14,132 nucleotides of DNA from the IMG/VR virus record IMGVR_UViG_2534682295_000006; one strand, 5' to 3'. Of this stretch, positions 2,291-14,132 are shown one piece after another; the first letter of the stretch is position 1; every line of letters starts with the position of its first letter. Made by a program: the position numbers and the translations under genes. Under the pieces are notes generated by a model. The model searched no databases, was not told the DNA's origin, and was given only the letters and a program-made list of their open reading frames with translations. This stretch comes from a virus (taxonomy: Duplodnaviria; Heunggongvirae; Uroviricota; Caudoviricetes).

Positions 2291-2389
2291 CGCATCACCT
2301 CTGGCAGGCGCCAATGTTAGACTTAAATTGACGCCCGATGTTGATTATTAATAATCAGCTATGAAGTTTTAATTTGAATACAATGCAAT

Positions 2390-2590
2390 TCACGAGGACT
2401 GAAGTTTCTCGCAATTAAAATTTATCAGTTTTACTTTCTGCTCTCTGGAAACGCCTGCTTCTTTTTTACCTGAGAGCATTTTTTCGCATTCTGATTTCGT
2501 TAGTTTAGATTTTGAATATCTTGTCCAGTTAGTAGGAGTGCCACCTTCCTTTTCAATAGTGGCGGTAATTTTATACATGAACACCTCCAT
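2390..2590 (-). CDS. ydaC: Rac prophage small protein YdaC, 66 aa from MEVFMYK; alternative upstream start at 2650
   Basis: Track ORF 2390..2650. An internal ATG at 2590 gives the N-terminus MEVFMYKITATIEKEGG that I recall for YdaC. The 5' end overlaps the ralR 3' end. Confidence 0.75.
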   Translation of the reverse strand: MEVFMYKITATIEKEGGTPTNWTRYSKSKLTKSECEKMLSGKKEAGVSREQKVKLINFNCEKLQSS

Positions 2591-2765
2591 TATTATTTCC
2601 AGTGGTTCGTTTATTTCATCGTTCGAGTGCTTCTTTTTCACTTCCACCATAACCGGTTCGGGATTCGCATCCGTTACACTTCGCTCGGTAATATCCTGAA
2701 ATGGCTTTCACCGTTACTGATGGACAACCACAAAATGGACATGGTTTAACATTGTCATATCTCAT
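2571..2765 (-). pseudogene. ralR: ralR (lar) restriction-alleviation / type I toxin gene interrupted by an in-frame TGA at 2616-2618 (codon 50)
   Basis: Minus-strand translation from ATG 2765: MRYDNVKPCPFCGCPSVTVKAISGYYRAKCNGCESRTGYGGSEKEALER-stop-NKRTTGNNNGGVHV-TAA. Recalled K-12 Lar is 64 aa with Trp at the stop position. The track has no ORF of 60 aa or more here. Confidence 0.7.
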
Positions 2766-2793
2766 AATTTTTCTCATAAAAATATTTCAAGTT

Positions 2794-2812
2794 GGCGGTG
2801 CATTACACCGCC
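2794..2812 (-). terminator. GC-rich stem-loop GGCGGTG-CATTA-CACCGCC between recT and ralR; weak intrinsic-terminator candidate for leftward transcripts
   Basis: Perfect 7-bp inverted repeat with 5-nt loop read directly. On the minus strand it is followed by a moderately U-rich stretch (AACUUGAAAUAUUUUUAUG). Confidence 0.3.
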
Positions 2813-2820
2813 AGGCTGAA

Positions 2821-3630
2821 TTATTCCTCTGAATTATCGATTACACTGTATTCCCCGGTTAATACAGAGGAATCTGCAGGATCGATTGTCAGTGGTTCCT
2901 TTTCATCCATTGATACTGCACGCTGGATCTCAATTGATACGGGCAGATATTTGAACAGGCGACGAATAGCCGTTTTCTTTGCCATTTCTTCCCAGTGAGT
3001 TACCCACGGCCCGTTATTACCAGCTTTACTCTGGCTGCGCACCAGCTCAATCTGTTTGCGCGTCATAACTTCAAACTGAGTACCTCCGTCTTTCAGTCTT
3101 GCGACAGCATAGACGTGGGTAACAGGGGCATCTTCGTTTTCTCCTGGGCGGTGTATTAACTTTTCATCAAGGCCAAATTCGAAATTAAACTCGTCACCTT
3201 CACGGACAACACGGGCTGACAAGCTGGCGATTTGACCTGAACGGCGAGCCAGATCAATCATGCCTCGATAGCCAATGATTAGCTGAACGTTTTTTTTACC
3301 GCTCTTTTCGTTTTTATTACCAAAAGGCAGTAAATATGCATGACCGAGGGCGCTACCGGGCTCAAGTCCGAGCTGTGAACACTGTACGATTGCACTGACA
3401 AAACTCATAGTGTCACAGTTTCCTAACGCCGGAACTTTACGAATTTCTGTGGTGGCGATACGGATCATACGTTCAGCCGTCATATGGCGTGGAAGAGCTG
3501 CTGCCAGTTGCTCTTTCATTGATGGCTGGTTAATAAAACTAATCACGTCGTTATTTTTAATTGCTGCTGGTGCACGGTTTCCCTGAGTTTTTTGCAGATC
3601 GGCTTTTGCGATTGGTGGTTGCTTAGTCAT
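2821..3630 (-). CDS. recT: RecT single-strand annealing protein, 269 aa from ATG at 3630; the track ORF starts 19 codons upstream
   Basis: Translation from [29 protein letters not shown] matches recalled K-12 RecT. Its start overlaps the recE 3' end by 8 nt. Confidence 0.93.
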
Positions 3631-12937: not shown

Positions 12938-13024
12938 GTAATGAATGGTCACATTATTTAGAAAAAATATCCGCGAAAGAGTAGAACAACAGAATTTCTG
13001 TTTCTCATTCTGTTTATCGTGTTG

Positions 13025-13162
13025 ATGATACCGATATCCCCGTTAATCCTAGTCTGGATAATCGGAAAAATAATTGAGCCAGTTATTGAATTGTATAACG
13101 ACGTGGTATGGGCGTCATTCAACACACTGCACAATAAAATTAATCCGTATAAGGAAAACTGA
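13025..13162 (+). CDS. Candidate small hydrophobic protein of about 45 aa (MIPISPLILVWIIGKIIEPVIELYNDVVWASFNTLHNKINPYKEN)
   Basis: Manual translation. The frame is open from 12962 and encodes FLFLILFIVL before the ATG, so GTG 13019 or TTG 13022 are alternative starts. Stop overlaps the next ATG (TGATATG). Confidence 0.35.
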   Translation: MIPISPLILVWIIGKIIEPVIELYNDVVWASFNTLHNKINPYKEN

Positions 13163-13163
13163 T

Positions 13164-13427
13164 ATGGCAACTTTGACAAAAAAAGAACGGGCATGGTTGA
13201 ACGAATTACAGGAAGTTCTTGATCGCTGTCCATCACCGAAAAAAATTGGCTTTTACACCATTGGCGATAAAAGCATTTACCTGTATGACCTACGCCGCAT
13301 GGATGAAATCATGGAGGCTCTTGATAATCGTTCGTCGATGGATTGGTGTGTTGCTGTTCATGATATGAATGCAGGGTTTGATGAAAAGATTTTGTTCCCC
13401 TCATCAGTTGAAAGCACTGCGGGTTAA
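13164..13427 (+). CDS. Hypothetical phage protein, 87 aa (MATLTKKERAWLNELQEVLDRCPSPKK...)
   Basis: Shine-Dalgarno AAGGAAAA 13151-13158 precedes ATG 13164. The track ORF 13074..13427 is the same frame extended upstream. Not recognised. Confidence 0.65.
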   Translation: MATLTKKERAWLNELQEVLDRCPSPKKIGFYTIGDKSIYLYDLRRMDEIMEALDNRSSMDWCVAVHDMNAGFDEKILFPSSVESTAG

Positions 13428-14003: not shown

Positions 14004-14132
14004 AAACGGTTTGCGGGAAAAGGATAGTTAAGTAGAATTGCTGCGGGTGCTTGAGGCTATCTGCCTCGGGCATGCCACCGTAAGGCAGACAGAGAAAAGC
14101 CCCAGTTAACATTACGCGTCCTGCAAGACGCC

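Follow-up and report, generated by a model that had tools for sequence, protein, structure and literature searches.

The window, that is the whole stretch of 14,132 nucleotides analysed here (IMG/VR virus record IMGVR_UViG_2534682295_000006, Caudoviricetes), carries ralR (lar), the toxin gene of RalR/RalA, the Rac toxin-antitoxin pair of type I, with an in-frame opal codon. The question raised by this locus is whether the codon belongs to a genuine allele and, if so, what it leaves of the toxin, of the antitoxin and of the neighbouring gene rcbA (ydaC). Translation of positions 2571-2765 (minus strand) from the ATG at 2765 gives MRYDNVKPCPFCGCPSVTVKAISGYYRAKCNGCESRTGYGGSEKEALER, a stop, NKRTTGNNNGGVHV and a second stop. 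The first stop, TGA at 2616-2618 (minus strand), is RalR codon 50, and the product has 49 residues instead of 64; the program-made list of open reading frames also closes the ralR frame at 2616. RalR translated from the genome of a K-12 MG1655 derivative is the same protein of 64 amino acids, with W at the position of the stop. A first-pass annotation, made from the letters alone, had recognised the Lar/RalR sequence on both sides of the TGA, and this was borne out by 100% amino acid identity to K-12 on either side. It had also placed the end of the frame at the TAA 2571-2573, at the start of ydaC, which is correct by translation, and given Trp (TGG) at codon 50 of K-12, which was seen both in the K-12 alignment and in the translation. 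The features of the ralR region are the following:

2616..2765, minus strand: truncated ralR (lar) coding sequence, 49 codons and the premature TGA, equal to RefSeq WP_001443846.1 as annotated in EDL933.
2616..2618, minus strand: TGA, an early opal stop in place of RalR codon 50, which is ancestrally TGG (Trp50), as in K-12 and the diverged alleles examined.
2619..2621, minus strand: codon 49, CGA (Arg), AGA in K-12, synonymous; coupled to the stop in 310 of 310 carrier genomes.
2571..2615, minus strand: untranslated ralR 3' remnant, codons 51-64 (NKRTTGNNNGGVHV) and the ancestral TAA, identical to K-12.
2778..2782, minus strand: T5 run just upstream of ralR (T6 in the K-12 alignment), a polymorphic 1-nt indel beside an alternative in-frame ATG at 2775-2777.

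The ancestral TAA overlaps the ydaC/rcbA start (ATG 2576-2578) in the string ATGTATAA, and the Shine-Dalgarno sequence of rcbA, GGAGGTG (2583-2589), sits inside the ralR 3' remnant. Alignment of window positions 2380-2900 with K-12 revealed four differences in 521-522 columns. These are the single G>A that converts TGG to TGA in ralR codon 50 (window 2616), the synonymous AGA>CGA in codon 49 (window 2621), 5 nt upstream of the stop change, the T run upstream of ralR, and rcbA codon 63 (window 2390-2392), which is TGA here and AGA in K-12. A chance match is of no concern, since the amino acid identity is 100% on both sides of the stop and the nucleotide identity is 99.2% over 521 nt. The "single G-to-A change" proposed by the first-pass annotation thus describes the nonsense codon itself and not the allele, which differs from K-12 at all four of these sites; the Trp50 nonsense allele is a small haplotype, consisting of the stop, the linked synonymous change and the upstream indel, and not a lone SNP.

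The TGA is the derived state, because K-12, all diverged E. coli alleles examined and the homologs of Salmonella and Citrobacter keep Trp or TGG at this position. Codon 50 is TGG in 9/9 full-length ralR alleles from other genomes, some of which depart from the window sequence at 10-14 of the 195 coding positions and have another RecT family recombinase as their neighbour, and the Salmonella and Citrobacter homologs (66-81% identity) have R-W-N-(K/R)-R in the codon 50 region. The alignment of 2571-2765 to K-12 ralR likewise has TGG in the reference, so the stop is not a feature that the reference shares. From position 72 to about 14008 every base of the window agrees with O157:H7 Sakai (prophage Sp10) and with EDL933 (CP-933R). 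Allele frequencies were counted in 5,426 complete E. coli genomes with 50-nt megablast queries that carry the linked SNPs at positions 23 and 28, where a mismatch at either one leaves no 28-nt seed. For codons 49-50 the counts were:

CGA-TGA (the type of the window): 310 genomes of 5,426.
AGA-TGG (the type of K-12): 1518 genomes of 5,426.
CGA-TGG: 127 genomes of 5,426.
AGA-TGA: 0 genomes of 5,426.

The survey of other E. coli alleles, which the first-pass annotation had suggested, therefore finds the same nonsense change in many finished genomes, and about 16% of the complete genomes that carry ralR encode just the 49-residue fragment. Carriers of CGA-TGA include O157:H7, O55:H7, O111:H8, O26 and O103 as well as unlabelled human and environmental isolates; the nonsense allele is the standard allele of O157:H7 and O55:H7 and occurs also in O26, O103, O111 and other lineages. 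The exact 49-residue protein is found on at least 1000 contigs under the RefSeq name "MULTISPECIES ... RalR". The TGA is both derived and present in independent assemblies, which is what is expected of a heritable allele.

All 310 CGA-TGA copies are 100% identical over the 50 nt. This identity, together with the full linkage of the stop to CGA, argues for a single origin, and we infer from these sequence comparisons that the nonsense allele probably arose once on the CGA-49 background and then spread by descent and by prophage or recombinational exchange. A stepwise path from AGA-TGG through CGA-TGG to CGA-TGA was considered and dropped, as in 4/4 sampled CGA-TGG genomes the haplotype is the diverged 'MRYEK' one and RecT is a different one; none of these four had the K-12-like sequence with CGA-TGG expected of the direct parent. 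The changes in codons 49 and 50 could have arisen in one mutational event, by a conversion patch and a mutation, or in two steps. The genes ECs1931, ECs1932 and ECs1933 (window 2390-3630) are among the most SNV-dense genes of O157:H7 feedlot isolates (PMC6112667). The O157:H7 strain 17B6-2 has a Rac-like haplotype of about 94% identity with an intact ralR, and the SNV density fits the coexistence of Sakai-type and such intact-ralR haplotypes in O157:H7.

What the stop removes can be estimated from the conservation of the family. A phmmer search of 1.84 billion cluster representatives returned 1690 Lar-family proteins at E <= 1e-3, and nearly all alignments reach query positions 52-57. In an alignment of 55 short single-domain Lar representatives, 33-62% identical to RalR, the sole invariant columns are C9, P10, F11, C12, C30, C33, W50 and N51. 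W50 and N51 are thus present in 55/55 members and R53 in 54/55, with R or K at position 52 in 43/55; all 55 proteins reach this W-N-(R/K)-R motif. The 49-residue product keeps all four of the zinc-ribbon cysteines (C9-x2-C12 ... C30-x2-C33), which are invariant in the family (55/55), and lacks the W50-N51-(K/R)52-R53 motif and full-length coverage of the family models. It scores 126.9 bits against NCBIfam NF007260 (cut-off 113; model positions 1-49 of 64), 40.3 bits against TIGR03655 (cut-off 39.6) and 39.0 bits against Pfam PF14354 (cut-off 28.6; model positions 2-52 of 58), the last being a drop of 14.5 bits from 53.5 on the loss of the last six model positions. Many of the Lar-family matches hold 2-5 tandem Lar domains, for example P0050 (322 aa, 4 stretches) and P0055 (295 aa, 5 stretches); unlike these, RalR is a single Lar domain.

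The AlphaFold2 model of RalR, which is of moderate confidence (mean pLDDT 71), contains strands at 17-22, 25-30 and 36-40 and a single helix at 43-58. The stop cuts this predicted helix after seven residues, so that over half of it is lost and the three strands are kept. A search for a solved structure of a RalR homolog gave just spurious CbpD matches (E = 0.002-0.016). Substitutions in RalR at positions 14, 37, 39, 49, 51 and 52 reduce toxicity, and purified RalR K52Q has no DNase activity and leaves DNA uncleaved (Guo et al. 2014, PMC4041452). The 49-residue product is very probably non-toxic because the required residues 51 and 52 lie past the stop, and it would very probably be without DNase activity as well. 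The loss of the toxin that the first-pass annotation had proposed agrees with the invariance of W50 and N51 and with the published mutants at 49, 51 and 52, which lose toxicity.

The second half of the module, the antitoxin RNA, overlaps rcbA on the opposite strand. The features of this part of the locus are the following:

2394-2572, plus strand: RalA antitoxin sRNA, full length, antisense to rcbA; matched by Rfam RF02694 over the whole model (positions 1-179 of 179) at 225.1 bits, against a gathering score of 170.
2456..2471, plus strand: 16-nt repeat in RalA, complementary to the ralR mRNA site, unchanged from K-12 (PMC4041452).
2628..2643, minus strand: 16-nt repeat in the ralR mRNA (AAGTGAAAAAGAAGCA), the RalA pairing site, unchanged from K-12 (PMC4041452).
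2390..2578, minus strand: rcbA/ydaC, coding for 62 aa (DUF1187) behind a strong Shine-Dalgarno sequence of its own; Pfam PF06688, 132 bits.

RalA pairs with the ralR mRNA through the two 16-nt repeats (Guo et al. 2014, PMC4041452), and the RalA span 2394-2572 shows zero differences from K-12. The locus thus has RalA, the 16-nt complementarity and the Rac context at ttcA of the type I module, and lacks an intact toxin reading frame. The best-matching O157:H7 genomes FORC_044 and CDC#03-98 contain one ralR-like locus each; since the toxin frame is broken and this locus is single in the best-matching genomes, RalA appears to be an orphan antitoxin in the O157:H7 lineage. It may persist simply through lying antisense to the rcbA coding sequence.

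The first-pass annotation held the overlapping ydaC frame to be unaffected, and indeed its coding part begins 38 nt downstream of the SNP. Damage to ydaC in the nonsense allele was considered in view of its length (62 aa here, 69 aa in K-12) and rejected: the stop at codon 63 is found in 7/9 other alleles examined, so the 62-residue form is common and the 69-residue form of K-12 is exceptional. The codon 63 SNP (2390-2392) is also close to RalA, whose 5' end (2394) it precedes by 2 nt, at about -2 of the mapped transcription start, and it could affect RalA expression as well. Upstream of its start the rcbA frame stays open as far as an ATG at 2650, within ralR, and forms a mechanical ORF of 86 aa (window 2390-2650, minus strand) in which the TGG>TGA change is Gly>Glu; as a strong Shine-Dalgarno sequence precedes rcbA itself, this ORF probably has no meaning. 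A scan of 2300-2900 for promoters and terminators gave consensus-level matches only, none of which bears on the nonsense allele.

The known system with which the locus can be compared is RalR/RalA of the K-12 Rac prophage (Guo et al. 2014, PMC4041452; Lar of King and Murray 1995), which occupies the same locus, recE-recT-ralR-rcbA-xisR-intR beside ttcA. RalR residues 1-49, the RalA sRNA and both 16-nt repeats are identical in the two, whereas the window has TGA at codon 50 and has lost residues 50-64, including W50, N51, K52 and R53. It also has CGA at codon 49, a T run shorter by one base and the shorter RcbA. It is very likely that the Trp50 nonsense allele is a heritable loss-of-function allele of the Rac toxin gene ralR, which leaves a toxin-null type I module with an orphaned antitoxin. 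The G>A change turned the codon of an invariant Trp into UGA and translation would end after residue 49, giving a zinc-ribbon fragment that keeps C9, C12, C30 and C33. Deprived of over half of the helix 43-58 and of the motif from W50 to R53, this fragment is predicted to be non-toxic, and the unchanged RalA, both pairing sites and the downstream rcbA would then remain as a module without its toxin.

Other explanations keep some function at the codon or in the fragment. UGA is the leakiest stop codon, tRNA-Trp is its usual near-cognate reader in E. coli, and the context here, UGA-A, is not the strongest terminator context. The ancestral codon being one for Trp, read-through of UGA-50 by near-cognate tRNA-Trp would restore exactly the wild-type RalR at a low dose, so that the stop would act as an attenuator of a weakened module in which RalA is still needed; the identity of RalA, of the pairing site and of the 3' remnant to K-12 would suit such a role. 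This is nevertheless unlikely. Wild-type E. coli typically reads through UGA at a basal rate of less than about 1%, RalR toxicity was demonstrated solely on overexpression, and a fold of the 75 nt around and after the UGA shows no stimulatory structure behind the stop (MFE -6.4 kcal/mol, z = +0.81). Moreover, the retention of RalA needs no toxin-based reason, given its position antisense to the rcbA coding sequence, and perfect conservation of the remnant is also expected of a young allele. That the opal codon is a dosage valve, with a level of read-through RalR that could depend on stress or on RF2 activity, is improbable; if it were true, STEC would keep a strongly attenuated DNase toxin policed by RalA, and the intactness of the RalA pairing site and of the 3' remnant would be explained.

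A restriction-alleviation activity was historically attributed to Lar, and the 49-residue zinc-ribbon fragment might keep or gain a non-DNase function of this kind, or a dominant-negative or DNA-binding one, and be maintained for it. It retains the four Cys ligands and the three predicted beta-strands, still passes the Pfam, TIGR03655 and NCBIfam cut-offs, and belongs to a widespread allele. However, throughout the Lar family the missing WN(R/K)R motif matches the cysteines in conservation, so any ancestral function of the family probably needs it, and the absence of a member ending before the motif among the 55 representatives points the same way; the prevalence of the allele is explained by descent within successful STEC lineages. 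Maintenance of the fragment for such a function is accordingly very improbable. The probability is close to nil for an error of sequencing or assembly, as for programmed recoding of the UGA as selenocysteine. The source assembly seems imperfect, as the left edge of the window looks like a chimeric join (the hypC fragment at 1-71), but Sakai, EDL933 and the other carriers, 310 genomes finished independently of one another, have the same base, and the concern about a sequencing error voiced in the first-pass annotation is thereby excluded. Selenocysteine or other structured recoding was rejected for want of a hairpin next to the UGA: no SECIS-like stem-loop was found in the 75-nt fold, 152 of 200 shuffled sequences fold as well or better, and the replaced residue is an invariant Trp and not Cys.

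With loss of function of ralR as the preferred reading, the next point is whether the loss was selected. One mutation that spread with successful lineages or by prophage exchange fits the data equally well as a selected loss of the toxin. Neutral fixation with hitch-hiking is at least as likely as selection for toxin loss, because in K-12 the deletion of ralR slightly lowers fitness under fosfomycin, and RalR has to be overproduced to be toxic. The ralR 3' remnant, free of further mutations, offers no positive evidence of decay, although this may just reflect the youth of the allele. Independent disruptions of the RalR C-terminus are rare and comprise W50S, two RalR-RcbA deletion fusions, one frameshift and one rearranged tail. 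The W50S variant (P0002) has 26 member sequences. In one of the fusions (P0012) RalR ...SEKEA continues as RcbA GVSREQ..., with the junction placed precisely at the two 16-nt direct repeats, which implies a repeat-mediated deletion of the ralR 3' end and of most of rcbA and RalA; the second fusion (P0015) is a different one.

The Trp50 nonsense allele is an ordinary, already catalogued one, and its place is in the decay of prophage genes. WP_001443846.1, or Sakai ECs1932 (EDL933_RS11365), is exactly the same 49-residue protein and the same DNA, and ECs1932 has been annotated in this short form (49 aa) since the original annotation of Sakai. Its name implies an active toxin, although the missing conserved C-terminus makes activity unlikely; the annotation pipeline PGAP calls the fragment 'endodeoxyribonuclease toxin RalR' because it clears the cut-off of NF007260. 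The annotation is inconsistent, as the curated Sakai RefSeq record NC_002695.2 jumps from ECs_1931 to ECs_1933 and has no ralR coding sequence (window 2579-2820; 2708-2949 in the Sakai locus), whereas PGAP records call the 49-residue toxin on the same DNA. In the literature on O157 no paper commenting on the truncated ralR was found, just gene lists citing ECs1932 at length 149, and the EcoSal review on restriction-modification makes no mention of Lar or RalR. The locus resembles chromosomal type I toxins that have decayed, among them the hok-like loci of K-12, which are inactive (PMC4041452); in both cases the toxin is mutated and the antisense RNA region persists. The hok-like loci were, however, inactivated by IS insertion or rearrangement and ralR by one nonsense codon, and, unlike them, RalA is protected here by its overlap with rcbA on the opposite strand.

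The activity of K-12 RalR/RalA should thus not be assumed in O157:H7, in O55:H7 or in many O26, O103 and O111 strains. Censuses of toxin-antitoxin systems that go by name over-count active toxins, since the fragment is still named as one. The natural genotype, toxin-null with an intact antitoxin, could be used to ask about the roles of RalA or RcbA in the absence of RalR. The practical value is small, and no new biological question is opened.

The edges of the window differ from its interior. Positions 1-71 match hypC at 100%; this core gene is located about 1.8 Mb from ttcA in complete genomes. At the 71/72 junction hypC passes directly into the interior of ttcA, and neither a repeat nor an IS marks the join. 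This hypC-ttcA junction was absent from the complete E. coli genomes among the best matches, and it appears to be either the chimeric edge of a contig or a rearrangement in the source. At the right end (14009-14132) the match to Sakai and EDL933 breaks down, first through scattered SNPs that begin at 14009 and then, past about 14102, completely; the source is thus identical to neither of these strains. Within the identical part, another decayed prophage gene lies at 12945-13162 (plus strand; 13074-13291 in the EDL933 locus), where the EDL933 sequence, which is identical, carries a DUF4014 pseudogene that PGAP marks as frameshifted.
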